64,000 bases of DNA, taken from contig NW_027191508.1 of assembly GCF_011745625.1 (NCBI RefSeq), forward strand, positions 1 through 64,000, given 5' to 3'. Source of the DNA: Cladosporium halotolerans (lineage: Eukaryota). The notes beneath the pieces were generated by a model. The model worked only from the letters and a program-made list of their open reading frames with translations, was not told where the DNA came from and made no database searches. The translations under genes were made by a program, and so were the position numbers. This document shows, piece by piece, positions 10,242 to 36,747 of the stretch (within the stretch, counting starts at the first letter, position 1; the number at the start of each line of letters is the position of its first letter).

Positions 10242-10264
10242 TAACCCTAACCCTAAAACCCTAA
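10242..10264 (+). repeat. Interstitial telomeric repeat tract
   Basis: taaccctaaccctaaaaccctaa. Confidence 0.8.
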
Positions 10265-13924: not shown

Positions 13925-14621
13925 TGGGTAATTTTGAGAGGTTCCGTTTGGTCTCTCTGAAAACTAATAGCTTCATCAATCTCCGCCTCAACCTGGTGGT
14001 ATTTAGACGCCATGGTGGTTGAATAGTTTAGGTGAAAAAGGAATAGACGCGTAGCTATACCACCATTTGCATTGAGCTGTGTTTTGCATTGAGCTGTGCG
14101 GCACTCGCTCGCGAGTCTGAGACGAGACGAGGGGTAGCGCACAAATAGCTCACATGAGACAGGGAGGAGGAGGAGGAGGGATTTATTCCGCCCGGCGCTA
14201 AGCACCTAAAGGGCAACACACTATTTACGTCACAAAGTTATATGCGTTCCGGTAAGGCTGAACCTAACAAAACTCTAAGCTCATTGTCCCTCAACACTGT
14301 AGATCATCCATCAGTGTGTATTGCTTTTATCCTTCGAGTGCTCGTGGTCAATGGTTGGCAGGTACTCTTGAAGCTGTGTTTCCAAGTGTTCATCGTCCTA
14401 TCTCCAGCAGATGAAGCGGGGTCCTGCCGTGTGCACGAGGGTGCATAGGGATGGTGCGGTATTGATGATTTATAGGGTGGATAGGCAGGGAGCCCGAGAC
14501 CTTGCTGGCTTAGCGCCGGCCCGCTTCCAGCTCTTGAGAGATCTGTTGACGCACAAATAGCGCGTACCCAGGCATGCCATCTACGGTGTAGTCCCGCTAG
14601 GCTCCAGAATTGCATCAGTCC

Positions 14622-17470: not shown

Positions 17471-20400
17471 GTGCCGACGGCTCGCCAAAACCCCGTGTAA
17501 CCAAACGTGCTCGCCAAATGTCTGACCCGGTTGATGCTTGTGCAATACATCACGATCTTGTCCTCCGCCGGGTACTGCGCCTTTTTCTCCTCCACCAACG
17601 CATGGACCGCGTCGTCGCCTTCTCCGGCGTCGTAATTGCGGACGCTGTACGCGATGTTGGGCCGTGTCGTCGCCTCCCGCAACATCGCGACCTCCTTCTC
17701 GTCCAAATCCATCGCGGACATGAATTCGGCCTGCTTTGTTGGCGGCAATGTCGCCGTCAAACACACCACTTGCGTCGATCGACCGGCCAATGCCCGCAAC
17801 TCACGCACGTTTGGTCTCCACGTATCCGTGGACTGCATGATCGTGTGGCACTCGTCGATCACGATTCGCTCCAACCGCTGCGTGCTGCTTCTGGAATTGA
17901 TGAAATCCGCAAATGTCTTCGTCACGGCTGATTCGGCGATCGCGAACAAAATGCGCGCATCGTACGGCGGTGCCCGCTCTTCGCTCCATACGGCACACTT
18001 GATGCCGGCGTCGATGCATCGCTGCTTCATGTTGGCTTGTAACGCCCGCTTCGGTACGACCACGATTGTCAACCCGCCCTGGGACGCGGCCGCTGGCAAC
18101 ATGAACAACAAACTCTTGCCACCACCTGTCCGCATCACGACGACTACCCGGGGGTGGCCTTGCGTGATCATTTGCAATGCCTCGCCTTGCAATCCTCGGG
18201 ACTGGGCGCTGGGGTTGCTGTAAAATCGCCGCAACTCTGCCAACGGGTCGATCGCGCGCATCTGCTCGAACTGCCGAAATTTGGCGTCTCCCCGGTCTTG
18301 TTTGATGCGTCTTCGGACGTCGGGGTCGACTGATTCCTCGCTCCACGCCGACGGGAACCACAAAAATCGATGCCAATCGCGACTCACTCGACCGAACATC
18401 TCTTTCTCGGCGATTGTCGTAAATGGTGATTGCTGTGCTGATCGGCCGTAAATATCCTCTTCCATTTGGAAACTGTGTCCTGACTGCTCTGCGCGGATGA
18501 CGGCGATGTTGTCGTCCGCCACCGGATCGGGCGCCGCCTGTCGGTTGTCGTATATGCGGTCCAATGCTCCACGCGTCTCCTTGTCCGTGGCGAACTCGCG
18601 GTGGATGGCGGGATACACCTGTCGCCAATCGCTGATGCCTATGCGTACTCCAATCCGCCTCTCGGTCTCGCGCTGCATCACCCTCCTGGTGCGGTCGGTC
18701 GTCCAATAACCGTCGCAATTGCGGGCTTTCTGGCGTGGTCGGGTCGTGACGATGCTCCCGTGTCCCTCGGCGGCCTCGTCGTTCTCCTCATCGTCATCGA
18801 CCTCGTCTTCGGTGCGATCGGTGATTGCGGGGCACCCTTCTCGTTCTGAATCGTATCCCTCGTCCAAATGTTCGACGTCTGCGTCCGGCCAATCCTCCTC
18901 GGGCGCCGGCTCCCACAACCACGAACTGTACGTCTGCTGCCCATTCGCCCCGGCCTGGACGATCCGCTCAAATGGTTCGACCAACCACAAATAATAAATG
19001 ACGATCTCGCCGACTTCTCGCGGTACAAACCGATGGACGTTCTTCATGCTTTGGCTCGCGCTGTACCCTTTGTGGTACGTCGTCACAAACGCCACCAATC
19101 CGTTGTCCACGAACACGCCTCGTTGCGATCGCGCGTTCTGTCCGTTCACCCGTTGGATGCTCGTCAATTCGGTGGATCGGGCGGGCGCTCCGGCCGACAT
19201 GTGCACCAATACCATCAACTCCTCTTTGAACCTCGTGACCGCACGCAAATAATCCGCCACGGCATCCTTGTTCCAATCGATGGCGGCCGAACTTTCTTCC
19301 AACCCCTCGTCGACGTTGATGAACTTGGCTTCGATGTCGGGTTCGTGTAACGCACGCTGACCCATCCACGTCGCTCCGTCCACCGCCCACTCGTTACGCA
19401 CGTCGGCCAAAAAACTCCAACCCTCATCCATTATACTGTGGTTGTCGGCGATCTGCTTCAATTCGAACCGTGGTAACCCAATGGGCCTCCATCCGTTGGC
19501 ATTGGCTCGCTCCACCACGGGCAACATCAACAACTCTCCGATCAACCTCTGCCGCGCCGTGCTCAACAAACCGTGGACGACGGTGCGGACGTCACTCATG
19601 CTGAACTTGATCTTCCGGCACAAAACCGTGTCGTCTCCCTCCCACGATATCTGCCCTTCCGCCTTGGTGGTGTACCGGATCTTCATCCCGTACGTCTTCT
19701 GCGTGTAAATGGTGTTCAACGGCGTGGGTTGGCTGCCAAATACCGTCAACGTCATGAATTGGTGGACGGCCGCTTTCACCCCGTCGAACACGCTTGGTGC
19801 TTCTTCGCGGGCCTCATCCTCGGACACACCGGCTGCTGACTGATCTGAAATGTGCTGTCTCCGTTGGCACCACGCCCTGCGGATGACCATGGCTCGCATC
19901 GTTGTGATGATGGCCGCCAACGTGGGGGTGTAATTGATCGCGGGCATCCACCCTCCGTTGTCGCCGTCGGCTCCTAACACTGCCAATCCGCTCAAAATGG
20001 CGCTGTCGAACTCACGGTCGCCTAATCTGTGGTCGAACATTGCAATCCAAAATTCTAATGCAACTTTGATCGATTCGTCCTTCTGGCCGTTTGTCTTCGC
20101 GGCCTCTCGGCGGTAATCCTGCAACCTCGCCTGCTGTGAACGGGTCAATCGGTATTCCGGACGATCTTCCATGTGTTCCGTGCGCCAAACGTATCGTAAA
20201 ATCTTGACGAATTTCTCGGTGTACCGACGGATCGTTTGCACCTTCTGCTTGCTGTAAAATGGTCGGTCGTTGTTCGCTGCTCCCGCTTCGCGACGGTTGA
20301 CGTACTCCATTGCTGCGCGGCCAACGGTCTCCACTTGGCTGATTTTGAATGATCGCCGGATTAATATGCTTGTGGCCGCGCATGCCCTTCTCAATGCGTC

Positions 20401-21237
20401 TTCGCTCCTTTGGATCTCTGCTTCGTCACCTCGATCCGTTCCCTGGCTTGGGCTTGCGTCCGACGTCCTACCTCGTGCTTGATGCGTTTGGCCGTCCGTC
20501 TCATGCTCCCCTTCTATCGACGGCTGTATCATCCGTACTGCCCACTCCTTATGCACTCCTATGTGCTCCTCCCAACCGGTGTGCGTCAACCACGGACTGG
20601 CCTCGCACCTTCGTCGCTCGCTCATCTCTGTTTTCTTGCCCTCCTCTACCCATTCTAACAACCTCTTCAAATACCCTCCTCTGTGCTGCTTGACGGCTTT
20701 CGGGGCTCCTGTTTCTCTATCGATAATGTCGGCTGTGGGTGGCCTGACTGCGACGGCGAAATACTGCTGCCATTTACCGGTCTTGAAAAATCTTTGACAC
20801 GGCTGATCATCCTTCCACAATCGTGCGGCTTGCTCGGTGGTGGGATGTCTGGGACTTCTGCCTTGATTCCGCGGATTCTTCCATCCGTGTTCTTTTTCGC
20901 AATGCTGCTGGATTCCGGTCCTGTGGCAACAAACATAATTGCACGCGACTCCTTCTCGGATCGCAATGCAACGCTTTCCATTTTCCGCTACGGGTATCCA
21001 TCCCACCGGTTGGCTGCTCGAATCCGGGTACACCACCTCCTCGGGCGTCCACGCGACATCCGACATATGGCTGACTGCGTCGGCAATCGCACGGGCTTGT
21101 GATCTACTGATCGTTTTGCCATGCTTCGTCTTGATATGTCCTTCAACCTGCATGGGGATTACTGCGAATCTGCATCTTCTACAAATTATTACCTTATACT
21201 CTGGACAATGTACGAATAATTTGTTGAATTGCTCCAT
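17471..21237 (-). CDS. DUF3505-type zinc finger + putative tyrosine recombinase + RecQ-like DExH helicase (telomere-linked helicase family); C-terminus cut by hAT
   Basis: ICRRCRFAV...HIKTKH; GAPARSTE; TTYHKG; DWRQVY; QSGHS..IYGR; MRTGGGKS; VIDECH; LTATLP; VMYCTS. Confidence 0.85.
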
Positions 21238-21829
21238 GGCGGAATTGTGGGTCGGCGATTTATTGTCCGCCTTAACGGCTGTGTCGTATACCCCTTTCGC
21301 ATTTGCTACTGAACGTTCTGCTCCAAAACGCGCTGCGGCTGCGCCACGGTGTGGCGTGTGTGGCTTATGGGCGGAACTTCATTCTTCTCATGGCGCATTT
21401 TCCGACATCAAAATCCCAACACTCTGTATTGATCCATCTGGATATTTGGGTCCGATGGATACGAAATTGATCGGATTGCAATTCATAATTTTTTTGCGAT
21501 TTCCCAATCACGTTTTCCAACTGATATCGACTAACTGATATCGACTTCTTTTCCTACCCTAACGCTAGACGCTGCCATACAAATTAACCCTAATTTTACT
21601 GATATCGACTCGATATCATCTGGACATTGTGGGGCTGATTATTGGTGGCATCAAGATGAGTCAGTTGATGTTAAGTTCCTTCGTTTGACCGATAGTCTCC
21701 TCCCGTCAGTCCGGGAGACTATGACTTTAGATCTGGAATCTCTTGCTCCATAATCTCGGCTGCAAGGGAGGATCACTGTTTGGGGAAATGGTTTTTGAAC
21801 GAGTTTGAAAAGGTGCTAGACTTAGCGAA

Positions 21830-24561
21830 CTAGTATTCCCACACAGGGTCACTTGTCATGTTGGCCGCAGACTCTGTTCCTCTGCCTTCACTGCCTCGAG
21901 CTGCTTTCGAAATTCGCATGTTTGTCATCTCTTGTAGAGGTCTTTTCTTTCCAAGCGTTGGGTCGCTAAAACCGAGAAATGCGTGCCAGCTCCGGCTGAC
22001 CGCACGAAAGCCAGCCCTGCGTGCTTCGACATGCCCGGGAGCCTCCTCCAGCCCACGCGCATATAATCTCCCTGCTGTCCATGAGGTATGTGCCGTCTGC
22101 TGATCGCTACTGCTCTCACCGATATCGTAGTCTCGTTTGAATCCTCCTTGCGATAAGTGGCGGCGAGAAATCGCGATAGCTACATGGCGATATATGGGTA
22201 TCGTAAGTGGAACGTTGAACTGGGTACTCGTCTCTCTTTTGAGAACTTTTCCAAGACGGGAGCTTGACCACATCCCTTTCCCCTCTGGCCAAAGGAGCGA
22301 AGATAAAGCTGACTTCGTAGCCCCCACAAAACCAGTCCCACGGGCTTGATGGGCTTTAGCTGAAGTGGGCTCATGGGTGTGCTGTACGGATTGGAGTAGT
22401 TCTACTTTCTGAGCGAATGGAAGGATCAGCCAAAGGTAGTAAACAAGAAGCTCACTTATCTCCCGTGGCAGGTATCGGTGGATGATCTTCGTAGTGCCGG
22501 TGCAGGTATAACCTTTATGGTATGAAGTGACGAGCGCGACTAAGCCGTCCTCCACGAAAACATTCCGATGGAACAAATTGTTCGTATGCTGCAACCCCGT
22601 GATTTCTGTGCCACGAGCAGGTTGGCCTGCGGTCATATGAACGAGTAATAGCAGCGTCTCCAAGAAGCTGTCGACCTGTGAACGATACCATTGAACCTCT
22701 CTGCTGTCCCATTCCACGCCATGGGAGCCACGAACAGAGCAGAATCTGTCCCGGAGCCTGTCGAGCTGAAGGACCCTCCTCAAGAGCCAGGTATCGCCAG
22801 GAGGCAACGTGTCTTTATTTCGCTTATCCTTCGTGAAATTCCAACCCTGTGTGACGACAGTAGGATTGTCGTGGATGCGATGAAGTGCAACCCGAGGGAC
22901 GACTTCAGCCCTTTCCTCGTCCCTCCCGAGCAGGAACAACGTTTCCATTTGTTGCTGTGCCTTGTGCACTTGTTCAAGTACAAATTGCCGGAATGATGTT
23001 ATGGGCAGCTCAAGATCACGATAATGGATGGTCTGCGCATCTTCCGACCACCGCATGTAACCCAAAGACGTCGTGCTATCGCGAATCTGTTTGCCGTATG
23101 ATCGCATATGGAGAGCCCACGTGAATGGCGTCGTGTTGTTCAGTGTCATAAAGCGCTCGCGCATCTCGTCGAGAGGGTCGAGCGGATCTTGAGCCAGACC
23201 ATCCTCGGCCATCATGACAGCCTTCTGGAGCACTAACAGCTGAGCAATCTTGATAAACGCGGAAAGCTTCGGTGTGTAATTTGGAGCCTCATAAAGTGTT
23301 CCATTCGCTTCGTCAATTCCGAGCACTGCCAGGAAGCCCACTATGGGGCTTTGAAAAACATTCCCACGAAGAGGTTGTTCGAGTAGCGACAGACAGAAAT
23401 CCAAGCACACGCGGTCCAAAGGCTCGAATGCCACAGAGGGTCTTGTGACTCTCGCGGCACTGTGCGCAAGTAGACTGTCGAGGAGGGCAGTCTGTTTGCT
23501 GTTGAGAACATGTTGGAATCGCAGGTGTTGATCTGGGTCGTGTGTGCGGCATATGAAAGCCAGAGCTCGCTTCCAGGATTGTTTGTATTGCTTGTACGTG
23601 GACTTTTGGAGTTTATAGACAAGTGGACGGCTGTAGACTTCCTTGCCAGGCAGGAAAGAAGAGATGCGCCTTTGTCCGAAGAAATTGACTTTTTCAGTGC
23701 ACAGAGAATTGTGGGCGGCTTCCACTAGTCGGTCAATCGCCATCCCGAGTTCGTCGAGGAGTGGTTCGTCGAGTCGATGCGGCAGTCTGACGAGTTTAGC
23801 AGCCTCGTTCAATGGTATGTCCTCTAGGTAGTGCAGCCAGCGAGTCCTCTCGAGCCAGGGAGATACCTGACAGTGCGTGACCTCGGTGGAGATAGCGAGG
23901 TCCTCTCGTAGCTGAGACGCTTCCAATGCGGCCAGATCATTGAGGACCACGTCGGCAACGAGCTCGCGATCACCAGATCCGATGTACTCGTGGTCCCTTT
24001 CAGGCCACAGGCTATCTCTCGCGCCCACCGGTTTTTTCACCCGGAAGGAAACACTGCCTCCGACACCAGCAGTGAAAAGTCGCTGGTAAAACGCCGGCAC
24101 GTAAGGTGGCTGTCCACCATGATGCTCTCGATCGAGACGCTGTCGCAGTGCACCCTTGGCTTTTGACACTGCACCGGGCTCACGTCTGACAGGTGCATGC
24201 CTCGAGTTATAGTGTCTACTCGCATTGTCCTCTCGCTTGGTTACGAATTGGCAGTGAGTGCAGCCGTAGCCAGTGTGCACTTTCAGCGCAGGAAGTGCTT
24301 CTTCGTCCGGAGGCGGTATAGGCAAATCGTCAATAGAAGGATTCATGGGCTTACGAGGCAATGAGGGAAGCAACACGCCTTGCACCCAATCTGTGGTGGA
24401 CCGCTTCGTCCGGAAGTCACTGCTATAGTGACGATGGTTGCTGCGGATGGGGTTATGAGATGCTTAGGGACGACGCCGGCAGCGCAGGGCTTGCAAACCA
24501 AGATCCTTTGTTCGACCAAGAAGTGGAACAGCCCTGGCTCCGTACAGTTTTCCGCGGACAT
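21830..24561 (-). pseudogene. DUF3505-type zinc finger + putative tyrosine recombinase, no helicase; frameshift near 24450
   Basis: N-terminus LVCKPCAAGV..HL in ORF 24343-24561, then 851-aa ORF with CTHC..H...H, GQPARGTE, SYHKGY, IYRHVA, QTAHTS..RLYAR. Confidence 0.8.
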
Positions 24562-25215
24562 CTTTCGAAAGTTTGAGGTAAATTATAGTATAACTTAAGG
24601 TTAGTGGCTACTGAGACAACGCGGGAGGAACGAGTGAGACACGAACAGGAACGCGTGAAGCTAAACGGGTCTAGCGCAAGGGTTAGGCGTGCGGGGTGGC
24701 TTCTGATTGGCTGCTTAAAGATAACGAGTCGATATTTTTATAGCATGTGTATCCAGCTTGTGTTGGTCATGGAATATAAAATGGGGGAAGAACCAACAGT
24801 GAGACTCGTTTACGACTTTGTCACGGACAAAGTCAATTTTTACATCATTGTGAAGCGCGAAGCAAGGAGAGGAGAGCGACATCATCAAGGCACCTGCTGC
24901 CATGCAGGCGGGAGTGCTATCGCCTGGCAAAGGTGGAGCAGGACCCCCTCGGCACGACGTTCATGGAATTCTTGCGAACGCGGGGTCGGCCCAACCAATC
25001 AAAGACCCTTGTGAGGAACGAATTACCCCTGGAACAGCTCATACGGGTGTCGAACCTGTGCATAGCTTAACAGATCAATCAATCAATCAATCAATCAATC
25101 GATCAATCGATCCGGATGGGGAGACCATGAAGAGGCCAGACAAACTCCAAATGGAGCGAGCGCGGTTAGGCCAACCTTCAGAAGCCCGAAGAAACGTCGT
25201 GCGGATGAAGGCTCG

Positions 25216-26778
25216 GTGCTCGACTTCCCCATCGGTGACATTGCGCAAGTAGTAGAGGTGGTGATCGACGAGGCACTTGCCACACCTCTGAACAGCATAC
25301 AATGTGCCCGCGAGGAACTGAAAGATTGGATAGCCCAGTCTCAGATACAGATGACGAAGATGATGAAGGAGGTGATGGAAATGATCCAGGGCAAAGCCGA
25401 AAAGCGAGAGGAGATTTTACTCCAGAAACTCCTTGAGCAGTCGTCTAAGACGGTGCCTAGATGCTTGAAGTGCAGCAACAAGGCAGTGCCTGACCCACAA
25501 CAGGCGAGGTCAGAAACACAGTCTACTTCACAGCCAAATGATATCCCCAGCCAAACCTGGGCGGCCAGGCTCAGCGGTACAACGCATAAGACGAATGAGT
25601 GGACGACGGTCAGCGGACGGAGAAAAACTCCAGCGGCGAAGAAGACGCCCAAGAAACACCCTATGGACCAAAGACGAGTACTACTACTGAGACAGGTCCA
25701 GATCGAGCAAGATCGAGCCCAGCAGACAGACCCAAGAGATGTGATGCTTGCCGTAAACAAAGCACTTGCCCAGGGTGGAACAGATGTGTCAACGCGACTT
25801 GCAGGACTAAGGTACACAAGAAGAGGTCACCTGTCAGGGCTCACGTCCGAATATGCGAGCGCTGATGACATGCTCGAGCACGCAGTTGTAGTGACAGCGG
25901 CAGCTCGCAAGCTTGACCCGGCTGTGGTCAAGCTCGAAAAGACCGAAAAGTGGCGCAAGCTGCGTGTGCACGGAGTGTCGCTAGACCGCTACCTGGGAGA
26001 CGGAGGTCTCGACTTAGCGAAGGAAGAGATCGAACTGATGACCGGCGCGTCGTTACCGTACGCACCTCGGTGGATCAGGGCTGAGGGATTGGAAGAAAGG
26101 TATCACAGTGAAGAAGTCACCCGCTCGACGTTGGTAGTGACTGTGAAAAGTAAGAATGCCGCCGACACCATCCTGGCCAAGGGCCTCTCGTTCGGAGGCA
26201 GACGGCATGAGGCCGAGAAATTCTGGACGAAGGGAGAAGGAGGGATATGTATGCAATGTTGCGGGCACGATCACTTCGGCAAGTGCAAAGAAGCAGCAAA
26301 ATGCTACGTCTGCGCGGGAGAGCACGAAGGAACGGAACATCGCTGTCAGGTGAAGGGCTGCGAAAAGAAGTCGGCGCCATGCGAGCACCACGCCGCAAAG
26401 TGCGTGAACTGTGGAGGCAAGCATATGGCGACTTCGAAGGGTTGTCCTGAAAAGTGGCAGCAACGACAACGTAAAAGAACCGAAGCGACAGAAGGACAAA
26501 GCCCGCTTCAGAAAGCCCCAGAGGAGGCAATATGCTCTGATATTACGGAGGGGCACGCACGAAACTCGGGTCATCCCGACCGACCTAGCGAGCCAAGATC
26601 GACCCCATCGCTGCCAAAGACACCGGTAGTGAACCCACCCGCCCCGGCGGCAGGGTGGAATGGAGAATCTCTGGCCTTCGAGATGGACATCGGATCGGAC
26701 GTCGAGTCTTCCTCCCCGACTCCGAGACAGCGAAGAATCACCCCAATGACTATTAGTGATGATAGTGCTACAACATAA
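25216..26778 (+). CDS. LINE ORF1 (gag-like, zinc knuckles); start uncertain
   Basis: CMQCCGHDHFGKC, CYVCAGEH..HRC, CVNCGGKH..C. Confidence 0.85.
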   Translation: MLDFPIGDIAQVVEVVIDEALATPLNSIQCAREELKDWIAQSQIQMTKMMKEVMEMIQGKAEKREEILLQKLLEQSSKTVPRCLKCSNKAVPDPQQARSETQSTSQPNDIPSQTWAARLSGTTHKTNEWTTVSGRRKTPAAKKTPKKHPMDQRRVLLLRQVQIEQDRAQQTDPRDVMLAVNKALAQGGTDVSTRLAGLRYTRRGHLSGLTSEYASADDMLEHAVVVTAAARKLDPAVVKLEKTEKWRKLRVHGVSLDRYLGDGGLDLAKEEIELMTGASLPYAPRWIRAEGLEERYHSEEVTRSTLVVTVKSKNAADTILAKGLSFGGRRHEAEKFWTKGEGGICMQCCGHDHFGKCKEAAKCYVCAGEHEGTEHRCQVKGCEKKSAPCEHHAAKCVNCGGKHMATSKGCPEKWQQRQRKRTEATEGQSPLQKAPEEAICSDITEGHARNSGHPDRPSEPRSTPSLPKTPVVNPPAPAAGWNGESLAFEMDIGSDVESSSPTPRQRRITPMTISDDSATT

Positions 26779-29700
26779 TTGTAATAGCACGGCAGTAACA
26801 ACGACGGCAGCCCTTGAAGCAGCCATCGAACGATGGGCCGAGGTGGTGATCTTGCAAGAACCATACGTTGGCCGAAAACATCAGATCAGCCACCCCGGCT
26901 TCCAGATACGTTGGCCGGAAGGCGAGAATAGAGAGATAAGGGTGGCGCTGGCTATCCGTGTAGACGTACTGGACAGGTACGTTTTCGAAGAAAGAACCGA
27001 CCTTGTCGACCACCCGTGTGTGCAGTGCTTAGACATCTGGGAAACGCAGCGCCGGCAGAAGGTGCGAATGACAAGGGTGGTGAACATATACAACAGAGCA
27101 AGAATGGATGGCGGCGGGTATGCGATCAACCGCATCGACTTCCGACGGCTGATCCAAGGAAGGACGATTCTGGCAGGCGACTTCAACTCCCGAAGTCCCG
27201 CGTGGGACCCTTGGGTAGAGGGCCGTCACAACGCCGGCGCCACCGAAGGCCTCATCGGAGATTACAGCCTGATCGTGAACAACACCGACCAGCCGACAAG
27301 ATGCGGCCCAAGGAGCAAGTCAGTAATTGACCTGACACTCAGCACGCCGAGTGTTGGGGCGCTGCAGACGTGGTACATTGACGAGGATTTTGCGACACCT
27401 TCAGATCATGCGGTCATAATCTTCTCGTGGAGCCCACTCAGCTCACAGGCAAGCGGACTAGAAGCGAGACCGATGTCGAGCTGGAACATCGACGAGCTTT
27501 GCGCCGATAAAGAGAGACTCGAGCAAGCAGCCGACCACTGGAAGCAGATCTCCGAGAGCAGACGACACGTTTCGGCAGAGTCAAAGGAAGAAGACCTCGA
27601 GGCTGAGGCGCAGTGGATACAAGACAGCCTGACATGCGTCTTGAACAGACACGCGCCGCCGAAACCGGTGCACGCACGTTCAAAGCGGTGGTGGTCCGAC
27701 GCAGTCAAGAAAGGGAGGAAGAAGTTCAACTTAGCAAAACGAGCGCTACGAGAGGGCCTCTCCTCACAGCCGGAGTACCGCCGGATCAGAAACGACTACT
27801 ACAGCTGTATCCGACGCGCGAAACGAGAGGCTTGGGAACGCTTCTTGGAAGGAGTGCTACCGACCGACGAAGAGGCTCAAGCTACGGTTGACAGCGATCG
27901 GTGTTGGCGTGCGCTCCGGTACACCAAACCGCAAACGCCTTCGTACACCCCAGCAATCAAGATAATTGGGGATGATGGAGAGCTGATCGGCATGGCGGCG
28001 TCAGCAGAAGAGAAAGAAGAGATCTTCATGAAACAAGCCTTCCCTTTTCAAGCGAGCACGAACGCCGACAACCTCATTCCAAACACAATCGCGGAGGTCG
28101 GAAGAAGAGACGTGCAAGAAGCGCTCTTCGCACAGTCGGTCAAGAAAGCACCGGGTGTCGACAAGCTCGGGTCTCGCGCGCTCAGATTGCTGTGGCAGTG
28201 GGATGCCGATAGAGTAGTGGCCCTCATCAGAGGGTGCATTAGCGCAGGATACCACCCACACTGCTGGAAGATTGCCAAAGGTATCCTGCTGCGAAAGCAG
28301 GGCAAGCCTACTTACACCGTCGCAAGAGCCTACCGCGTTATCAGCCTGCTGAACTGCCTGGGGAAAGTGGTAGAGAAGGTAGCGGCTACGTGGATCACAT
28401 CTTACTGCGAGAAGAATGAGGTTTTTCACCAAGGACAGTTTGGCTGCCGTCACGGCAGAAGCACTTCCGACGCTGTCGCAAGACTAGTGTCATTCGTGGA
28501 AGATGCGTGGGAACGGAAGCAGACAGTGCTCACCCTACTGCTGGACGTCAAAGGCGCCTTTGACCGAGTGAACAAGCAACGTCTGCTCGAGCGTCTGATC
28601 GAAGTTGGCATCGCTGGCAACATCGTCCGCTGGGTCAACTCTTTCTTGTCTGACAGACGAGCGATGCTAGTCGTCGACGGCAGAACGGGGAAGACGCACG
28701 ACATCCAGGCTGGCCTGCCACAGGGCTCACCAGCTTCGCCAGTATTGTTCAACTTATCGATAAGCGCGATGTTCCCGTGGCTCGAAGAGATGCATCCAAG
28801 TTTGGAAGCGATCTCATTCGTAGACGACATAGGCCTTGTCTTGAAGTGCAACAAGCTGCGCGAAGGCGCGAGAGAGCTCGAGAGCATTACGCAATATGCA
28901 GTCGAGTGGGGAGACCGCAACAAAGTCGAGTTCGAAATCAGCAAGACAGAAGTCGTCGTCTTCAGCAAGCAGCGCAAAGTGCTACAAGAAAGCAGAGAAA
29001 CGTCGTTGCGTATCGGACAACACGGGCTTCCCATCAACTGCGGGGCGACTAAATGGCTAGGCTTCTGGCTAGACCCGAAGCTATCTTTTATGTCACACTT
29101 CGATAAGAGACTGGCGAGTGCCAAAGGTGCCTTGCAAAGGATAAAGGGCCTCAGTGGCAGTCGTGGTGGCTTACCCATGCGACTGATGCGGAGAGTAGTG
29201 GTGGCAGTCGTCAACTCGGTCGCACTTTACGGAGCTGAGGTGTGGTGGAGGGGACAGCAAGACCGTTCCAAGCGTCTGCAACTACTGCTGAACAGGCAAG
29301 CACGAGCTATCACTGGTATGCTGTCGTCTACACCGATCCCCACCCTGCTCGCGGCAGCTTGCTTGCCACGTGCTGGAGAACTGCTGGACTATCGCCAAAC
29401 GCGGTTTGCCGTGCGAGCTCTTTCTGCCGCACAAGACCATCCGACACATCAGCTGTTGCCCCCGAACTTTCGGATGGGCCAGTTGTACAGACACGAAGGA
29501 GCCGTAGACCGCTTGTCAAGCGTCGGCTGGCTCAGCCCCGACAAAACGCACCGTACACTCGGAGGCAGGCTGGCGCAGCAAATAGCTAAGAAGCTGGCCT
29601 ACGACACTGAATACGGGTTCGGCCTCCTCGAAGATCTGGGCTCGGCGGAAGCAGACATCGATGTCAGGGTTCGCGGCCCGGACATTACAACGACACAACG

Positions 29701-30637
29701 GAGGAGTGAGGAACAGCCAGAACAGCTCACGTTGTTCGCAAGGACCATAGACGGTACCGCCGAAGGCAACAGCTTCGGAGCGGGCGTCGTGTGGGAAGCG
29801 CAAGGCTGCTGGAGAAGAAAGGCAGCGTCACTCGGCAGATATCTAACCGTCGTGGATGCAGATCTGTTCGCTGTCAGCATGGCGGTGGAAGAAGCTTGCT
29901 CGAGCCTGCATAAGACGGGAAAGCGAAACGCAGAGATTGTGACGAATTCGCGAGAAGCTGTCATAGCGGTCACCAGGCTCACGCGGTGGATGCCATCGCT
30001 GGTGAAGCAGATCTTAAGCCAAATCAAGCAGCTTAAAGCGCGAGGATACGGTTTGACACTGTCATCAATCTCTGTCGACGCAGAGGCTGAAGGGGCGAGT
30101 ATTGCCGAGGCTTTGGCAAGTCGGGCAGCACGACAACAACCGCGACACATGCGTTCCGCATCGATCTCCTACGCGCAACAATGTGTGAAGGTAAGCGGGA
30201 GGCAATCACCCAAGCTGAACAAGCACATCAGAGACGCGAACAAAGCGGTAGCAACGCGATACCTACAGTTGAAGTCGGGCCACGCCGTGACAGGCGTGCA
30301 TCTGATGAGAACAAAGAGAGTGCAAAACACCCGATGCTGGTGGTGTGATGACAGCAGACAGAGCGTGGCACATCTGATGCTCAAGTGTCGCAAATGGAGA
30401 AGAGAGCGAGAGCAGATGCTGCGTGCCCTAGAAGCGAAGAAGATCAAGATATCGGCTAGAAGGAACGAGCAAGACGTACTGGTCCTGTTCGGGGAGACAG
30501 CTGTCGAGGCAGTATTGCGGTTCATCGAATGCACAGCAGTCGGCAAAAGGGCAGAGGCGAACAGCACACAAGGACTAGATGAGTGGGACATTGGTCTGCT
30601 CGACCGGGAAGGCACGGACGATGAGAGAGCACTTTAG
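26756..30637 (+). CDS. LINE ORF2: APE endonuclease, reverse transcriptase, RNase H-like, C-terminal CCHC
   Basis: LQHNCN, LQEP, AGDFN, SDH; KAPGVD, YRVISLLN, LDVKGAFD, GLPQGSP, FVDD, WLGF; CWWC...HLMLKC. Uninterrupted 1293 aa. Confidence 0.96.
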   Translation: MMIVLQHNCNSTAVTTTAALEAAIERWAEVVILQEPYVGRKHQISHPGFQIRWPEGENREIRVALAIRVDVLDRYVFEERTDLVDHPCVQCLDIWETQRRQKVRMTRVVNIYNRARMDGGGYAINRIDFRRLIQGRTILAGDFNSRSPAWDPWVEGRHNAGATEGLIGDYSLIVNNTDQPTRCGPRSKSVIDLTLSTPSVGALQTWYIDEDFATPSDHAVIIFSWSPLSSQASGLEARPMSSWNIDELCADKERLEQAADHWKQISESRRHVSAESKEEDLEAEAQWIQDSLTCVLNRHAPPKPVHARSKRWWSDAVKKGRKKFNLAKRALREGLSSQPEYRRIRNDYYSCIRRAKREAWERFLEGVLPTDEEAQATVDSDRCWRALRYTKPQTPSYTPAIKIIGDDGELIGMAASAEEKEEIFMKQAFPFQASTNADNLIPNTIAEVGRRDVQEALFAQSVKKAPGVDKLGSRALRLLWQWDADRVVALIRGCISAGYHPHCWKIAKGILLRKQGKPTYTVARAYRVISLLNCLGKVVEKVAATWITSYCEKNEVFHQGQFGCRHGRSTSDAVARLVSFVEDAWERKQTVLTLLLDVKGAFDRVNKQRLLERLIEVGIAGNIVRWVNSFLSDRRAMLVVDGRTGKTHDIQAGLPQGSPASPVLFNLSISAMFPWLEEMHPSLEAISFVDDIGLVLKCNKLREGARELESITQYAVEWGDRNKVEFEISKTEVVVFSKQRKVLQESRETSLRIGQHGLPINCGATKWLGFWLDPKLSFMSHFDKRLASAKGALQRIKGLSGSRGGLPMRLMRRVVVAVVNSVALYGAEVWWRGQQDRSKRLQLLLNRQARAITGMLSSTPIPTLLAAACLPRAGELLDYRQTRFAVRALSAAQDHPTHQLLPPNFRMGQLYRHEGAVDRLSSVGWLSPDKTHRTLGGRLAQQIAKKLAYDTEYGFGLLEDLGSAEADIDVRVRGPDITTTQRRSEEQPEQLTLFARTIDGTAEGNSFGAGVVWEAQGCWRRKAASLGRYLTVVDADLFAVSMAVEEACSSLHKTGKRNAEIVTNSREAVIAVTRLTRWMPSLVKQILSQIKQLKARGYGLTLSSISVDAEAEGASIAEALASRAARQQPRHMRSASISYAQQCVKVSGRQSPKLNKHIRDANKAVATRYLQLKSGHAVTGVHLMRTKRVQNTRCWWCDDSRQSVAHLMLKCRKWRREREQMLRALEAKKIKISARRNEQDVLVLFGETAVEAVLRFIECTAVGKRAEANSTQGLDEWDIGLLDREGTDDERAL

Positions 30638-30889
30638 CAGGGAGGAAGCGAGATGAGTGCAGACGCCGAGGGAGGACGTGGCAAAACCAAAGACAAGCTA
30701 GTATGAGGGCGCTGAGCCCAAAAGCCGTGGCGACTTGACTAAGTCGGGATGGCGAGCAGGATCGAAGGAATAACACCAACGCAGGAGCACAGATAGAAGA
30801 CCAAGAGGTTCGTCTAGGGATTAGCCCGGGCTTGTCATAAGCTGAACAGCTTGTATACAATATGATTACAAAAAAAAAAAAAATGGGGG

Positions 30890-31790
30890 ACAGTGTGACG
30901 TACACCACAAGAAGTGCACCCACACTTTCCATTGCAACCGCTGCCTCCACAGCAGGTCTTGCACTCGCAGCTTGCCATTTTGTCAGGATTGATGATTGAC
31001 TTGCGCCTCTTTTGTTGAGAAAGATTCTGATAGAACATGATCTATTATCCGTCAAAATTTGATGATGGAGGAATTCATTGGGAAAAAGTTGTTTCGAACA
31101 AGCATATGAGCTCCTATTTGTACCAGTTACTATCTGACTCGAAACAGGAATGGCAAAGCTGACCGCGGTCAATACGCGATAATATCGGACGATGGTAGTT
31201 GCTATGACGGAGCAGCGTATGCGGGGTAGGCCAAGGCTGGGACAGCCTATGAAGGCTGCCAATCACGATTGGCGGAGTTGTATGTCCAGCCGTCAGATCC
31301 GCAAATCATGCTAACAAGAGATGAGAACAGTGTATTCCGATCGATTCAGTGTGTACTGCGCTATATCCGCCACATCGGAATGATTTCCAACTGTTTCGCA
31401 AAGGAAAAGCGATAGAAAGGATTCGGGCGGAGCTCGCGTATCACGGACAATGGAAACACCCCACGCCCGCATTCTAGAAGTGCAGACGCCCTGCCTGTTT
31501 CTTCTTGGACGGAAACATGATCAATTTCGCGCGCGACTTTGGTGCTTGAGCACTCAACCCTGGCAATCAAACGACTTTACGTGGCCGGGTCCTTCCCGTA
31601 GAACCGGTGTGGGTCACCCAAGCACTTTCAGCCGCCATGATCTGATTTCCTGGATATTGTCGACCTTTCTTTTGCTATGAGGTTAGCCATGTAGAGGTGG
31701 TGCATAATGGCCAGGTCAAATACAAGAAGTGTGACAAGGAATGGGTCTACACATCGGCGTCTTTGCCTCCTCATCTCTGCTTGAAAAATC
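30890..31790. repeat. Diverged direct duplication of metallothionein exon 1 and upstream region (partner ~60860-61800)
   Basis: Shared blocks, e.g. gctgccaatcacgattggcggagt, ggagctcgcgtatcacg, cacccaagcactttcagccgc, tcggcgtctttgcc. Confidence 0.85.
30904..30978 (-). pseudogene. Copper metallothionein copy 1, exon 1 (intron interrupted by LINE; exon 2 not found)
   Basis: MASCECKTCCGGSGCNGKCGCTSCG followed by GTACGT donor. Confidence 0.85.
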
Positions 31791-32582
31791 AACCTTTGAC
31801 GTCGTTAGCCTGCATGTGAGGAAACAAAATATCAATATCGAGCTAAGGTGGCTCGAATAACCCATGACCAGGTCTTGAGCTCGGCTACTAGTCAAAACCT
31901 TTGCCGATACGGTACTTCAGTTGTCTAGAGCAGCCACGATAATTGTGTTCCAAATCACGCGGTAGCTTGCGAAACGTCGCTATGACTAGTCGATGACATG
32001 TCATACTTTAACGGGCGGAGCTGGGCGTCCGAAGAAAACAGGGATGAGATTTTATGTTCTGTAAGAAACACAGCAAAGAGCTCCATCCGTCGAACCTTTT
32101 CTTGAAGATCATTACCTGTGACGGAGCTAGAGCCCCAGGCTGCCGGGATCTTCCGAGCAAAGGAATAGCCTTTCACAGCACATGTCTGCTTGCCTCATGT
32201 CTTTGGAATCTTATTAAACTGCCGCAGTACGAACGGTTTTCAAAGTTGTGCTACCACTTACTGTTCGGGTTCGCATAGCTTCTTATCTATTCCCCAGCAA
32301 CGATGAGCAAGACTCACCAACCCAACTTGCCTGCTATATTGTACATCTCCATTGTATCGTCCAGAAGCGAAGCTCCGTTGGTCTCAAGCTGGACACTCGG
32401 ACGCTAACGTCATTCAAAGTTCGCATTCAAGTAAGACACCAAAGAAAGCTGGGTGGTTTCCACATCGACACTGGACGCACACGTCACTCAAACCCTGCTC
32501 TCCCTTCCCTTGCCGGTCTTCCGGCTACTATGAAAAATAGAAAAGCTATAAGACATCCTCAGACCGTCCTTCGTGAATACCA

Positions 32583-34076
32583 ATGGCTTCACTGGTTCCC
32601 TTTCATCTTACAATGTCTCCCCTTTTGAGATTTCTCTTGACCATCGCCCTGCCGTTTTGTGTGGTCGCGACGCCCATCGACCCCCACGAAACTCGCGATG
32701 CGTCGCTCTCAGCTTGTGCGGCATCTATGAATGGAATTTTACCCTCCCCTACCCCTTCCGGATATGTCTTCAGCGGCAACATTCGCAAATACTATGTCGC
32801 TGCCGAAGAGGTAGAATGGAACTACGCGCCCACAGGGTGGGACAATTGGCTCGGAGTTAGTGCTTGTTCTCACTAGTAACGTAATCTTCGACTGACGTGG
32901 TCAATCAGGTCCCTCTCAACATCTCCCCACGAGCCCAGATGTCCGGTATGACGGCCCATGGTACGACTTGGTTGAAAGCACTATACAGGGGGTATACTGA
33001 TGCTACGTTCACCACCGAGTCCCCGCAGCCACCGTGGCAGGGTACTTTGGGTCCGACATTGCGGTCCGAGGTGGGCGATCTGGTCGAAATCATGTTCGTG
33101 AATCGGCTTTCACAGAACTACGCCAGCATGCATTCCATGGGTCTCTCCTATACCAAATACGACGAAGGCTCCGCTTATCCAAACAATACCGTTCCTGGCC
33201 AAGAAGTCAACTTGCCAAACGCTGAAGCGGTGCCTCCGGGGGGTTGCGTAATCTACAAATGGTTCGTTGATGAGGTATCTGGTCCGCCGGCAGGCCAACC
33301 AGCTGTCGCGCGTAGCTACCACTCGTATGTTGCTCTGCAACAGGACACGAACGCGGGCTTGATTGGGCCGCAAATCGTATATGCACCTGGTCAGATGGCC
33401 GCAACAATGGCCAACTATCGCGAATTTCCTCTGCTCTACATGATCTACAATGAGGGGGACTCTTTTCTCTCTGGCCAAAATGCTGCTGCCTTGGAAAGCG
33501 GTTACTCGTCTTCTGAGAATTCATCATATCTGTCTGGCTCTGGCGTCGTGTCCAGCCACGGACCCTACAAACCCAGCCAAGGTGGGAATGTAGGTAGCGT
33601 CAACTCTGACATTCTCAACCTAGGCAACAAATCAGTCTGGCAACCCCAATTTACGAATATTGCAGGCGCCAATCGTTTCGATGGCGCGCCGTCAGTCCAC
33701 ACCATGAACGGGTACATCTTTGCGAACAACCCCATGTTCGAGATGTGCCTTGGCGACAACGTGATCTGGTATACCATGTCGTACGGGAGTATGAGTCACG
33801 TCTTCCACATGCACGGCAACAGTTTTCGTTACAACGGCATAGGAACACCGTCAATCAGTGAGTATCTCGTCGTTTACTCTGTAGTGTGTTAAGTACTGAC
33901 CGTATGCCCTCACAGGTATCAACGATGGCGAGCATAGGACTCTTTTCATGAATGCTACTGGAGCTGGACTTTGGCAAGTCCTATGTCACGTCAATATGCA
34001 TCAATCAATGGGCATGGTCAGTAATTACCAAGTGTACTTTGCCGGACAATGCCCATTGTCGACACTGGGCTCATAG
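32583..34076 (+). CDS. Secreted two-domain ceruloplasmin/hephaestin-like cupredoxin (multicopper oxidase family), 3 exons; start 32583 or 32613
   Basis: Signal peptide; YYVAAEEVEWNYAP, GTLGPTLRSEVGD, YHSY..DTNAGLIGP, HVFHMHG, WQVLCHVNMHQSMGM. Introns ~32856-32909 and ~33858-33915. Confidence 0.88.
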
Positions 34077-34546
34077 ACCGTCATCTGCCTACTGGAGCGA
34101 GCGGGTAGCGCTGGACGGTAAGTCTACAAAGGGACGAAGTTTAGACACGTTCCTGTTTGCAAGCATTGCGCGACAACTGCGGAGTAATCAAATTGGTGAT
34201 CATGGATGTGCTCGCGCCGAACACGTCGGAAATCGTTAGCGTAGAAGATTTCCTGAACCCTTTCTTAGATAATGAGCAATCAAATCTTTTCTACTTTGTC
34301 ATGGACCAATTCATCACTAGGGCCGAAGCGCTAATCGAGCGAAATACGGCGGCAGTATTGTTGCACCCAGCCTTACGCAGGCGGGCATGCTACTGTTCTG
34401 CAAAGGCGACGCAGGCGCCTCCCTGGCGGACGTCCTTGCGTAGTTCTACAGCGCAAGCGCGGGGACTGTCGAGTCAATCGGCAGCTATTCGGCAGCTCAC
34501 TACTATGGCCAACGTCGAGGCGCGTCTTCTCCTGGAACGGCCACCA

Positions 34547-34797
34547 CCTCCCCTGGTCCAGAGGTTTGTACCCTGTCCAGCCCCACACCAAAATTTGGTA
34601 GGAGCTGAGACAGCTGGTGAACTAGTCCACAGAGGGACCTCAGGGCCTCGTGTCATTTCAATTTGGTGTAATTTGGTGAAGGATTGGTAGTGTAATGAAT
34701 TTTTGAAGATTGGTAGTGGAATGGTGATGAGAAGGGATATGACGAATTGACACTGCGGGAGCATCCGAGAGGGTACAAACCTCCGGACCAGGGGAGG
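34547..34797. repeat. 28-bp inverted repeat pair enclosing ~195 bp (MITE or element terminus)
   Basis: cctcccctggtccagaggtttgtaccct / agggtacaaacctccggaccaggggagg, 1 mismatch. Confidence 0.8.
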
Positions 34798-34869
34798 CAT
34801 ATTGCGAGGACCCTAACCCTAAAAACCCATTGTCTCAGATCTTCTCCCGGTCTTGCCTTGCCGCGGGAA

Positions 34870-35140
34870 ATGGGCTTATTCGAACGTCTTCCAGACTACA
34901 AAGTGCTGGTCTGTCGGCTCTGCAAATTTACAGTGCCTCCGAAGTCCCTGAAACCACACCTACAAGGCAGACACAAAGAGGATGATTACGACCTTCGCGG
35001 CAAGAATGGACCTGCAGATATCGCCCGAAAGCTCCTATCGCAGCATGAAATGCCTTTGCTTGTGATGCGGGTTGTTTTGGTCGGACACCACAAGCTTGGT
35101 TCCCTACCTATCAGTAATGACTGTCTTTACATACGGTGCT
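34870..35140 (+). pseudogene. 5' fragment of another DUF3505-type gene
   Basis: MGLFERLPDYKVLVCRLCKFTVPPKSLKPHLQGRH; preceded by ccctaaccctaa (34811-34822); truncated by a retroelement. Confidence 0.7.
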
Positions 35141-35142
35141 TC

Positions 35143-35215
35143 GCCGGACGGAGAGCGCACACCTTCACGGGGTGTCCGGTGTGAGTAGCTGCTATGCAGT
35201 GAAACCAAGTGCGCT
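35143..35215 (+). ncRNA. HDV-like ribozyme fold (family A)
   Basis: P1 GCCGGAC/GUCCGGU, P2 AGCGCAC/GUGCGCU, P3 ACC/GGU, L3 UUCACGG, J4/2 CCAA. Confidence 0.75.
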
Positions 35216-35905
35216 ACAAAACAGCCATAAGAGCGATGAGCCCACGCGGAAGTCTCGCAAGAAGCCATCACTTGACGACCCTACCCGTCGACAACACCTG
35301 ACATGGTCGACGTGGCCGCCCCGACCTCGCCGCCCTACCGTCGGGAAACCCTGACACGACACGACACGACACGACAAAGCCTGTGCCGACCGCTCGCCTG
35401 CAGGCAACACGACGCTACAGCCGGCGACGCCGCCGCTAACGCCGACTCAACATCGAAGATGACCAAGAGTCGGAATAACACGCAACGTGACAAGCACGGC
35501 AGACGCAACGCGTCAGCACACAGCATGAACAAGCCCGCAGGCCAGCTTGCACAACAGACGGAAAGAGGCGGACAACAAATGAACACAAGCCAGGGATATG
35601 CAACAGCCTGGGCCGTTCAACTTCGCAATACAAGAAAGAAGCAAGCTCATTCAGAGTAACGGGCCCGCAAAAGACAAGCGCCACGTAGCTTAGGCTGCGA
35701 CCACATGGACAACGCATGAGCTTCCCGCTACGAAGAAGCAGAAGCTTGTAACACGGACAAGACAGCGTGCACCTCTGGTACTCGAGGTGCCCAGCCTGTA
35801 AGATGTGGGAAGGAGAGGAGAGGTGAGGTGGAGAAGGGAGAAGGGAGAAGGGAGAAGGGTCGGTAGTTGCAACCACACGCAAGAGCCAGTAGGAGGGCGC
35901 TGAGC
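35143..35905 (+). mobile_element. Non-autonomous SINE-like retroelement, family A, copy 1 (3' truncated)
   Basis: Head shared with 39521, 59114(-) and 61846; ends in gagggcgctgagc as in the LINE 3' UTR. Confidence 0.8.
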
Positions 35906-36282
35906 TACCTACAATTCTTAACTGTGATCGACTCGATCCCATTTCTTGACTAACGTTAACCGAAAACGGTTCGGGTTCATACCCTAAGACGGTCGATCCC
36001 ATTTAGTCGATCCCATTTTAACGCCGACGAGCAATAATTTCGAGGTTGGTATGGCATTGTAGAGCGGATAGTTGCAACGAACCCGAATATGTTTTTTCCC
36101 CGAAAAGTCGTGGTTGTGCATATCGTCGTCGCCGCCGAAGATAAGTGGAAATATAGTGAAGTTTGCGCATAGACCACCCAACACGGCCAGTGCACACGCG
36201 CGAAAGTCGCGACCGTTTTCCCATGTTTAACGCGAGACATACCGGCATAAGAGACAAGTATTATTATACACAGCACCACACG

Positions 36283-36400
36283 ATGGATATATTCGAGAAA
36301 TTATTCATACATCACCGAGAATGTCAGGTTGTCATATGTAAGCGATGCCAGTTCGCCGTCAACCCAGCCAGCGTGAGGGGCCATATCCAGAGCAAGCATA
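36283..36400 (+). pseudogene. 5' fragment of a DUF3505-type gene, paralogous to the ORF starting at 21237
   Basis: MDIFEKLFIHHRECQVVICKRCQFAVNPASVRGHIQSKH versus MEQFNKLFVHCPEYKVIICRRCRFAV. Confidence 0.75.
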
Positions 36401-36747
36401 AGTGGCACGGGCTCAAGTAAGATGTTTTTCACAAAGTACTTGGCTACAGTACGTCGCTGTTGATGCGCGCGTTGATCGAACATGCTTCCGCGCAGATCGC
36501 TCGCCCGAACAATTTCCCCGACATCGCGGTCTCAGGGTAAGGGTTGTGATGGCGCTCAGGATTAACGTATCATCAACGACGTATCGTCACAAGCACGCGA
36601 ATTGAGGCTTGCCCGACGCACTGCTGGTAGACTATACGTTGTGTCACAGTGTCCAATAGTCACACGTCCTGTTCTGTTCACTACCCTTTAAGAAATCGCC
36701 TGTTCGAACAGGGTTCCCTTTAGTGTTCGTACCATTGGCAAGCTTGG
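36400..36747 (-). mobile_element. Partial copy of the hAT MITE at 59615-60088
   Basis: ccctttagtgttcgtaccattggcaagcttg is the reverse complement of the MITE left end. Left boundary approximate. Confidence 0.7.

Follow-up and report, generated by a model that had tools for sequence, protein, structure and literature searches.

Fungal telomere-linked helicase genes may move themselves: a defined 5' terminus and a self-specific site array beside a predicted recombinase fold

Results

TLH elements within a transposon-rich fungal region

The stretch analyzed here, the first 64,000 nucleotides (nt) of contig NW_027191508.1 in assembly GCF_011745625.1 of Cladosporium halotolerans (hereafter the window), is a transposon-rich fungal region. 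Three sites in it, each a palindrome upstream of a DUF3505 start codon and two of them accompanied by tandem repeats, had been predicted to be recombinase-binding sites that mark the ends of elements. The elements concerned are telomere-linked helicase (TLH) elements, though internal ones; two of them, designated A and B, and a fragment designated C3 carry the sites in question (Table 1).

The gene of element A (gene A) matches the TLH protein plan, in which C2H2 (OrsD/DUF3505) fingers, a central TLH domain and a RecQ helicase are combined in one protein. Pfam places OrsD (DUF3505) at residues 6-118 and DEAD at residues 1016-1168, the long central part having no Pfam match, and among PDB sequences the helicase is closest to RecQ5 and RecQ. 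Comparison by tblastn with a homologue of 1673 amino acids (P0005) shows gene A to be cut off at about 17449, near residue 1277 of some 1670. Full-length homologues measure 1600-1700 amino acids and also possess Helicase_C; one of them is named tlh1. A TLH element spans about 6-8 kb with a single open reading frame (ORF), and there are shorter relatives without the helicase. Such a relative is element B, whose gene is a distant paralogue of gene A (about 27% identity) lacking the helicase; it extends from an ATG at 24561 to a stop codon at 21830, the 3' boundary of the element lying at 21635. A 1-nt frameshift near 24449, between the first zinc finger and the rest of the ORF, is absent from contigs of runs X2 and X3, which have one extra base, and the alignment with the related locus L032 (see below) reveals the missing base; gene B is either a pseudogene or the victim of an assembly error. 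C3 is a 498-nt 5' fragment (35905-36402); its homology to full elements stops at about 36402. Thus, where three DUF3505 genes encoding a tyrosine recombinase had been announced, only the two at 17425-21237 and 21830-24561 carry a recombinase-like domain.

Table 1. Coordinates of the TLH features and of the adjoining transposase ORFs in the window
Feature	Position	Strand	Basis
hAT-family transposase ORFs directly downstream of the gene A truncation	14773..17428	-	Pfam Dimer_Tnp_hAT, translation
Element A gene: OrsD/C2H2 fingers, TLH domain, RecQ helicase N-lobe	17425..21237	-	Pfam, PDB sequence search, tblastn
TLH domain of A, residues 620-985, predicted tyrosine-recombinase fold	18283..19380	-	alignments, AlphaFold2, VIA-align
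Element A sites 2 and 3, tandem 14-mers, AACTGATATCGACT (gene orientation AGTCGATATCAGTT)	21519..21546	-	
Element A spacer, site 1 to sites 2/3	21554..21597	-	
Element A palindrome with 9-nt arms, TGATATCGA-C-TCGATATCA	21600..21618	.	kept in L001-L004
Element A palindrome, inner 17 nt, GATATCGACTCGATATC	21601-21617		
Element A terminal-motif remnant CCCCACAAT	21626..21634	-	alignment with L001-L004
Element B body: helicase-less gene, C2H2 fingers and predicted recombinase-fold domain	21635..24561	-	
Element B imperfect palindrome GATAACGAGTCGATATT (gene orientation AATATCGA-C-TCGTTATC)	24720..24736	.	
Element B 5' terminus CTGGATACACAT (gene orientation)	24745..24756	-	homology to L032 and X2/X3 contigs ends at 24756
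Fragment C3 canonical terminal motif CTACCTACAAT	35905..35915	+	L005/L006-type homology starts exactly here
Fragment C3 palindrome GATCGA-C-TCGATC (GATCGACTCGATC at 35926-35938), including site 1	35926..35944	+	
Fragment C3 site 1, TCGATCCCATTT	35933-35944	+	
Fragment C3 sites 2 and 3, two copies of GTCGATCCCATTT	35992-36004 and 36006-36018	+	
Fragment C3 start codon and about 40 residues of first zinc finger	36283..36402	+	

Fusarium solani and Colletotrichum proteins match the TLH central domain, and 2448 cluster representatives match the central region at E <=0.001. In place of a genome-wide census, 80 metagenome loci encoding relatives (L001 onward) served as the comparison sample. Five of these (L008, L034, L054, L070, L074) end downstream in (TTAGGG)n on the gene strand and a sixth, L057, in a degenerate telomere array. 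The orientation of the (TTAGGG)n ends implies that the gene points to the chromosome end and that its upstream module faces inward. The copies in the window are internal, with only short interstitial telomere repeats at 10245-10270, 34811-34822 and 2286-2326.

In Fusarium, TLH proteins are described as having a pair of C2H2 motifs at the N terminus, followed by a TLH domain some 250 residues long and by RecQ motifs; the TLH-containing regions are single or arrayed, with telomere repeats on both sides, and the function and mode of spread of TLH are called undetermined (10.1101/2024.02.27.582403). Repeats combining DUF3505 with a helicase have been reported at subtelomeres of Colletotrichum (PMC5576322) and Fusarium (10.1101/2023.02.05.527183). 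No link between TLH genes and tyrosine recombinases was found in the accessible portions of this literature, which do not include the original TLH-domain paper. A Helitron-like nature, suggested for TLH flanks in Botrytis and by "DHX" labels in Colletotrichum, was considered and rejected for the present elements, no Rep domain being present.

Palindromes and repeats upstream of the genes

All three motifs are present as predicted, with small corrections: the arms at A are 9 nt long, the repeats at C3 have a period of 14 nt, a single A separating sites 2 and 3, and the palindrome of B is imperfect, with 6 of 8 arm positions pairing. They lie 364-380 nt (A, ATG at 21237), 345-357 nt (C3, ATG at 36283) and 159-175 nt (B, true ATG at 24561) from the start codons, in agreement with the 160-380 nt anticipated. 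In both perfect palindromes, the inner arm together with its flank constitutes a third copy of the direct repeat (site 1, at 21597-21608 in element A), so that the A and C3 modules each contain three direct copies and one inverted copy of one 12-mer. At a tolerance of one mismatch, the A word TCGATATCAGTT starts at 21608, 21544 and 21530 on the minus strand, and the C3 word TCGATCCCATTT at 35933, 35993 and 36007; neither has a further match in the 64-kb window. The direct repeats had been taken for a separate, arm-type class of site, an idea that does not survive the finding that they are the same word as the inner palindrome arm.

Palindromes with arms of at least 8 nt are unremarkable on their own, numbering 6 in the window and 1-5 in shuffled sequences. 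The composite is another matter. If it is defined as a palindrome with arms of at least 6 nt and no fewer than two further near-copies of the half-site within 130 nt, the window contains it three times (at 21600, at 35926 and in a microsatellite at 25098), and it is found in 0 of 30 dinucleotide shuffles.

A conserved motif at the 5' boundary

Many of the contigs in the comparison sample start 360-600 nt upstream of the start codon, and full-length copies begin with a family-wide 11-nt sequence, CTAYCYACAAT. Scanning both strands of the 80 loci and the window (539,511 nt) for CTA[CTA]C[CT]ACAAT yielded 37 matches, against about 1.5 expected for uniform base composition. They are spread over 29 loci and the window, and 37 of 37 are on the gene strand; one, at L033:1961, lies inside a microsatellite and may be due to chance.

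Alignments place the end of homology at this motif. Element A and loci L001-L004 are homologous from the ATG through the repeats and the palindrome, to a point about 17 nt beyond the latter, at ...CTAYCCACAATGTCCAGAT; outside this terminus the flanks are unrelated. A contig of run X3 departs from the window at 21630 and continues as a canonical CTATCTACAAT with a different flank. Element B and its relative in L032 (91% identical) have no sequence in common beyond CTGGATAC (window 24756), 20 nt outside the palindrome; measured from the terminus, the palindrome spans +21 to +37. Contigs of runs X2 and X3 likewise depart from the window at 24756. In a second clade, compared all against all by blastn, homology starts at L008:32, L005:8, L011:455, L009:99, L007:1, L013:18, L015:2, L017:4 and L018:20-27, each time at the terminal motif, as it also does in L010 and L012; the flanks of this clade are unlike wherever a flank exists. 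Overall, the boundary is situated 17-27 nt outside the palindrome. Copies thus diverge near the module, as the original prediction would have it, but at CTAYCYACAAT and not at the palindrome, through which homology continues. The palindrome is therefore not the crossover point, contrary to its proposed role as a crossover core.

The arrangement of A and B follows from the same comparisons. Alignment of the 3' flank of B with L032 shows that homology ends at 21635, abutting the terminus of element A. The sites at 21601 and 24720 had been thought to bracket the helicase-less gene; since the 3' boundary of B adjoins the terminus of A, they are instead the 5' modules of two elements arranged head to tail, the 21601 site belonging to the 5' end of A and not to the 3' end of B. 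In L032, too, an A-type gene start follows B. The suggestion that the sites mark element ends holds in that a real boundary lies near each of them; it fails in that only the 5' end is marked. In 18 loci and the window, the 12-mer of each element (with up to one mismatch) is confined to the 5' module, the sole exception being an occurrence in L011 with one mismatch.

Several elements have stacked tandem terminal units (the motif with site 1, or the whole module) in two to four copies, the unit length being subfamily-specific: 68 nt in L003 and L004 (positions 1-260), about 45 nt in L010 (1-90), 194 nt in L026 (2100-2640) and 76 nt in L039 (2305-2430) and L063 (1329-1417). A stack is also found in the upstream region of L046. 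In run X3, an A-type unit of 65 nt is followed by terminal motifs of other subfamilies. This stacking suggests repeated exchange at the motif.

No consensus target word or flanking short repeat was found in the 5' flanks. At L073:3216 and L046:7898, the terminal motif of a new element follows directly on part of a resident TLH gene, immediately past the segment coding for the Walker-A motif of the helicase (MRTGGGKSLFF...), the two junctions being 11 nt apart in homologous sequence; separately, the flanks in L039 and L073 share the ending TTTATAAYC. These cases may reflect a preferred target.

A site array whose layout is kept as its word changes

Relative to the terminal motif, three direct copies of a subfamily-specific 12-14-mer occur at about +28, +82 and +96, the third being at about +105 in some subfamilies. 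The positions are constant and the word changes: TCGATATCA, TCGATCAC, TCGATCCC, TCAATCAC, TCAATCCC, TCAACCAC, GTCGGATTC, TTCATTTGTTTG, GCAATTCCATTT and GCATGAGGATTT are found at the same places in different subfamilies, and this arrangement is seen in nine or more types of site sequence, in elements whose proteins show only about 30-50% identity. The expectation that the architecture would be conserved and the repeat copy-specific was thus borne out. An inverted partner of site 1, which creates the palindrome, is present in many subfamilies and absent from ends of the L073 and L079 types. In many subfamilies, the interval from site 1 to sites 2/3 contains a word resembling TTAGGG or CCCTAA; the spacer of element A contains TTAGGGTTA and GTTAGGGTA (gene orientation).

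A word of at least 9 nt is repeated within 175 nt in 27 of 29 termini, including L039, where the repeat is a duplicated terminal unit; the exceptions are B in the window and one microsatellite case. Counted from the start codon, an exactly repeated 10-mer occurs between -450 and -200 in 34 of the 48 loci with sufficient upstream sequence, versus 0-5 of 48 in coding windows of equal size, the loci not being independent of one another.

A fourth 5' module, of another subfamily, is located on the plus strand (34581-34730, 34811-34822). It consists of two copies of AATTTGGTG and two of GATTGGTAGTG followed by CCCTAACCCTAA, and precedes an OrsD zinc-finger fragment (34870-35140, ATG at 34870) that is cut at about 35143 by another repeat; it has no nucleotide-level relative among the 80 loci. 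The modules of A, of C3 and at about 34.6 kb have different site words inside one window. This coexistence argues for a factor encoded by the element rather than for a shared host factor.

The base at the centre of the palindrome is G or C among near-identical copies (window 21609 and L001-L004; window 24728 and L032, whose palindrome is the same as that of element B with G at the centre), the G-centre and C-centre forms being reverse complements of each other. A flip-flop inversion of the centre, which the pair GATCAACTCGATC (L005) and GATCGAGTTGATC (L067) might have indicated, was not retained: two CpG transitions and a change at the centre fit equally well.

Predicted tyrosine-recombinase fold of the TLH domain

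An AlphaFold2 model of residues 620-985 of gene A (predicted local distance difference test, pLDDT, 69; predicted template-modeling score, pTM, 0.70) was compared by VIA-align with 48,161 representative chains. The best matches were XerA (Z 10.2; root-mean-square deviation 3.7, 154 residues aligned), XerH (8.6) and again XerA (8.5), followed by XerD, Cre, phage and transposon integrases, IntI, Flp, type IB topoisomerases, Ndc10 and a protelomerase. Rows 1-30 all have the tyrosine-recombinase fold, and unrelated rows score Z <=3.3. Scores were lower for Flp (Z 5.4) and type IB topoisomerases (Z 5.2-6.2). Five residues, R687, K723, R872, H921 and Y930 in gene A numbering, are invariant in alignments of 27 and 49 sequences, with 9 residues from H921 to Y930. 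Their order and spacing, which are the grounds for assigning them putative catalytic roles, fit the active sites of Cre, XerD, lambda Int and vaccinia topoisomerase; such a set is also that of type IB topoisomerases in general. In a language-model protein search, clusters of NDC10_II, Phage_integrase and Integrase_2 came up, but at no better than 0.83-0.84, a lead and nothing more. Taken together, the predicted structure and the alignments indicate a tyrosine-recombinase fold for the TLH domain, in which the R-K-R-H-Y set is intact and which may be catalytically active, in line with the earlier proposal that these genes encode a recombinase.

Other features of the window

Further TLH pieces include zinc-finger fragments and a 5'-truncated copy at 10244-8643. 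The latter begins at about residue 694 and is joined directly to CTTAGGGTTTTAGGGTTAGGGTTAC (10245-10270, minus strand), a stretch of interstitial telomere repeats running in the orientation of the gene; the arrangement resembles what the addition of the copy to a chromosome end would leave. A degenerate CCCTAA-like run, CCCCTAACCCCAAACCCCTAAACTCCCTAA, occupies 2286-2326 and is followed by an ATG-rich microsatellite.

A plus-strand non-long-terminal-repeat (non-LTR) retrotransposon at about 24800-30640 lies just outside the 5' terminus of element B; its ORF1 is at 25216-26778 and its endonuclease and reverse transcriptase at 26756-30637. A 58-nt stretch upstream in this element recurs at 2485-2542. 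A transposon of the Tc5/pogo type with a DDE_1 gene (12062-13925) has 54-nt terminal inverted repeats that are 96% complementary, and a second DDE_1 gene, at 54036-55408, is broken. Metal-handling genes are found among the transposons (32897-33892, 37770-38516, 40761-44285, 50670-51674), the set consisting of a heavy-metal P-type ATPase with three HMA domains, a ZIP transporter and two multicopper-oxidase fragments.

Discussion

The association of palindromes and repeats is confirmed as real and family-wide, and its interpretation as core and arm sites of a recombinase is partly supported. The reading favored here, to which we assign a probability somewhat above one half (about 0.55), is that the three motifs are 5'-terminal recognition modules of TLH elements, that is, site arrays for the element's own protein that serve as a left end for recombination. 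Four features lead to it: the sharp 5' end, the self-specific array of fixed geometry, the stacked units and the recombinase-fold domain with its catalytic set. The element's own protein would bind the three (or four) half-sites and build a complex on the left end, thereby bringing the recombinase-fold domain to the terminal motif; there, strands would be cleaved and exchanged so as to join the element to a new flank, possibly a chromosome end or another copy. The same sites could possibly also regulate transcription of the TLH gene. We infer from these features the binding and the domain responsible for it, the catalysis by the element protein, the exchange at the terminal motif and the handling of the 3' side.

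A number of observations weigh against this assignment. On the DNA side, the boundary lies outside the palindrome and the palindrome arms are just 1-5 nt apart, classical recombinase core sites having a crossover region of 6-8 bp. Element B has no clear direct repeats after its palindrome, only weak TCGTT-like words discernible by eye, and 14 of the 48 loci have no repeated 10-mer in the interval tested (-450 to -200). Neither a sharp 3' end nor matching sites at the 3' side were found across the compared loci: L008 and L005 share 6.3 kb and diverge at L008:6367, other pairs end elsewhere, and the distal 1.8 kb of L008 is unique. Consequently, a complete transposition cycle cannot be drawn. 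On the protein side, the HxxR histidine has no conserved counterpart, the residue three positions before R872 being S, A, I, C or P in the 27-sequence alignment. Residues 280-1000 match no Pfam family, Phage_integrase included, at E <=10; a profile of the domain alignment retrieved no recombinase among PDB sequences; and Foldseek gave nothing better than E 0.46, though Xer and Cre chains top its list. The segment of the model that bears the tyrosine has a pLDDT below 50. The mobility proposed here for the elements is based on sequence comparison and predicted structure, and subtelomeric elements are able to spread by homologous recombination without a recombinase. Finally, the sites occupy the promoter region of the gene itself, a position that a regulatory role explains equally well.

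This last point introduces the most serious rival, unlikely as the whole explanation and one that may coexist with a recognition role. The sites would be nothing but a promoter or operator, bound by the element's C2H2 fingers or by a host factor and switching the TLH gene, for example in a telomere crisis; the recombinase-fold domain would not act on them, and the boundary would be the edge of a unit copied between chromosome ends. The stretch 160-380 nt upstream of the start is the sole one able to hold the element's own promoter, the protein has fingers at its N terminus, a telomere-repeat-like word is found among the sites, and TLH genes are reported to be silent and induced when telomeres fail. 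Such a role leaves unexplained the termination of homology at one conserved 11-nt motif, with 15 or more dissimilar flanks, and the tandem stacking of terminal units. The differences between words within the window would be unexpected for a host factor, yet they are compatible with autoregulation by the element's own fingers.

An altogether less probable alternative is that the module is an entry site for replication or repair, its origin-like inverted pair and iterated half-sites serving to load the RecQ helicase, with the recombinase-fold domain acting as a type IB topoisomerase and the element being copied to chromosome ends by break-induced or rolling replication. Palindrome and iterons are indeed the classic layout of an origin, a RecQ helicase is part of the protein, and the R-K-R-H-Y set and the topoisomerase scores leave room for such an enzyme; the truncated copy joined to interstitial telomere repeats is what replication primed at a chromosome end would be expected to produce. 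Nevertheless, helicase-less elements such as B retain the terminus and the palindrome, recombinases outscore topoisomerases (Z 8.5-10.2 versus at most 6.2), and there is no evidence for extrachromosomal copies.

A lambda-type attachment site, with the palindrome as crossover core and the tandem repeats as arm sites for a separate domain, would account for an inverted pair and nearby direct repeats beside a recombinase-fold gene, but it is very improbable, being already contradicted by the passage of homology through the palindrome to a point 17-27 nt outside, by the identity of the direct repeats with the inner arm, by the close spacing of the palindrome arms and by the subfamilies (L073, L079) that keep three direct sites without an inverted partner. 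That the repeats are fortuitous or neutral and have no function can be practically dismissed: single palindromes of such size are common, but the composite is missing from all shuffles, its layout is conserved with changed words among divergent proteins, and every match to the terminal motif is on one strand.

It is more than 20 years since TLH genes were first recognized at the ends of fungal chromosomes. The predicted recombinase fold, the sequence-defined 5' end and the self-specific triple array turn their function and spread into testable questions, and suggest that these long-puzzling genes may move themselves. It is tempting, if as yet a tentative step that we regard as possible rather than probable, to view TLH genes as the enzymes of a widespread, unrecognized superfamily of self-mobilizing elements, in which a Crypton-like recombinase (the TLH domain, defined in 2009), combined with C2H2 fingers and RecQ, would read its own left end through the triple array, cut at CTAYCYACAAT and join chromosome ends or resident copies, giving rise to TLH arrays. 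If so, eukaryotes would possess a DNA element able to target or build chromosome ends, which would matter for how ends are maintained without telomerase, for the plasticity of subtelomeres and for annotating thousands of fungal "RecQ helicase" genes. Should the sites prove to be only regulatory, the present data would still provide a precise, portable description of the TLH control region.

Comparison with known systems

In the FRT site of the 2-micron plasmid, recognized by Flp, one word is used three times, as an inverted pair and an extra direct copy, with exchange taking place in the 8-bp spacer. The TLH modules resemble it in employing a single binding word three times, two copies being inverted and a further one direct; they differ in that the arms are 1-5 nt apart, the boundary is outside and the extra copies are about 54 nt away, and Flp reaches only Z 5.4 in the structural comparison. 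Lambda attP is similar in clustering several recombinase-related sites on one side of the exchange point, but here the arm and core words are identical, all the sites lie to one side and the inverted pair does not contain the boundary.

Starships have their captain, a DUF3435 tyrosine recombinase, at the 5' end. TLH elements resemble them in that their first gene has the recombinase fold, lies a few hundred bases in from the 5' boundary and is oriented inward. They differ in size (3-8 kb) and in having no cargo and no defined 3' end, and DUF3435 gave no Pfam match in the window ORFs scanned.

Cryptons, the tyrosine-recombinase transposons of fungi, algae and animals, have several traits in common with TLH elements: both are DNA elements that encode a tyrosine-recombinase fold within a single large ORF, and both lack terminal inverted repeats (in the 18 loci searched and in the window, the side opposite the 5' module held no inverted copy of it). 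In Cryptons, the terminal motif is identical to the target, and short direct repeats are present at both ends. The DNA-binding domain of fungal CryptonF is GCR1_C, which has no Pfam match in genes A or B, and we know of no description of a three-site array with fixed spacing in Cryptons. Ndc10 and the Crypton-derived fold of QRICH1 are among the structural matches. In Chlamydomonas, an active Crypton has CACCG at its end and CAYCG as its target (PMC9977147). TLH elements are alike in having one terminus defined by a short motif; they differ in that their 5' flanks contain no clear shared word, in the fusion of the protein to C2H2 fingers and, mostly, a RecQ helicase, and in their link to telomeres.

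The TLH genes and regions of Magnaporthe, Fusarium, Botrytis, Colletotrichum and fission yeast (tlh1/2) are described in terms that, in the accessible portions of that literature, assign the TLH domain no function and mention neither a terminal motif nor a site array; the window differs from them in that its own copies are internal rather than at a telomere array. The protein plan is the same, down to a homologue named tlh1, and the arrays and interstitial telomere repeats reported in Fusarium are also found here.

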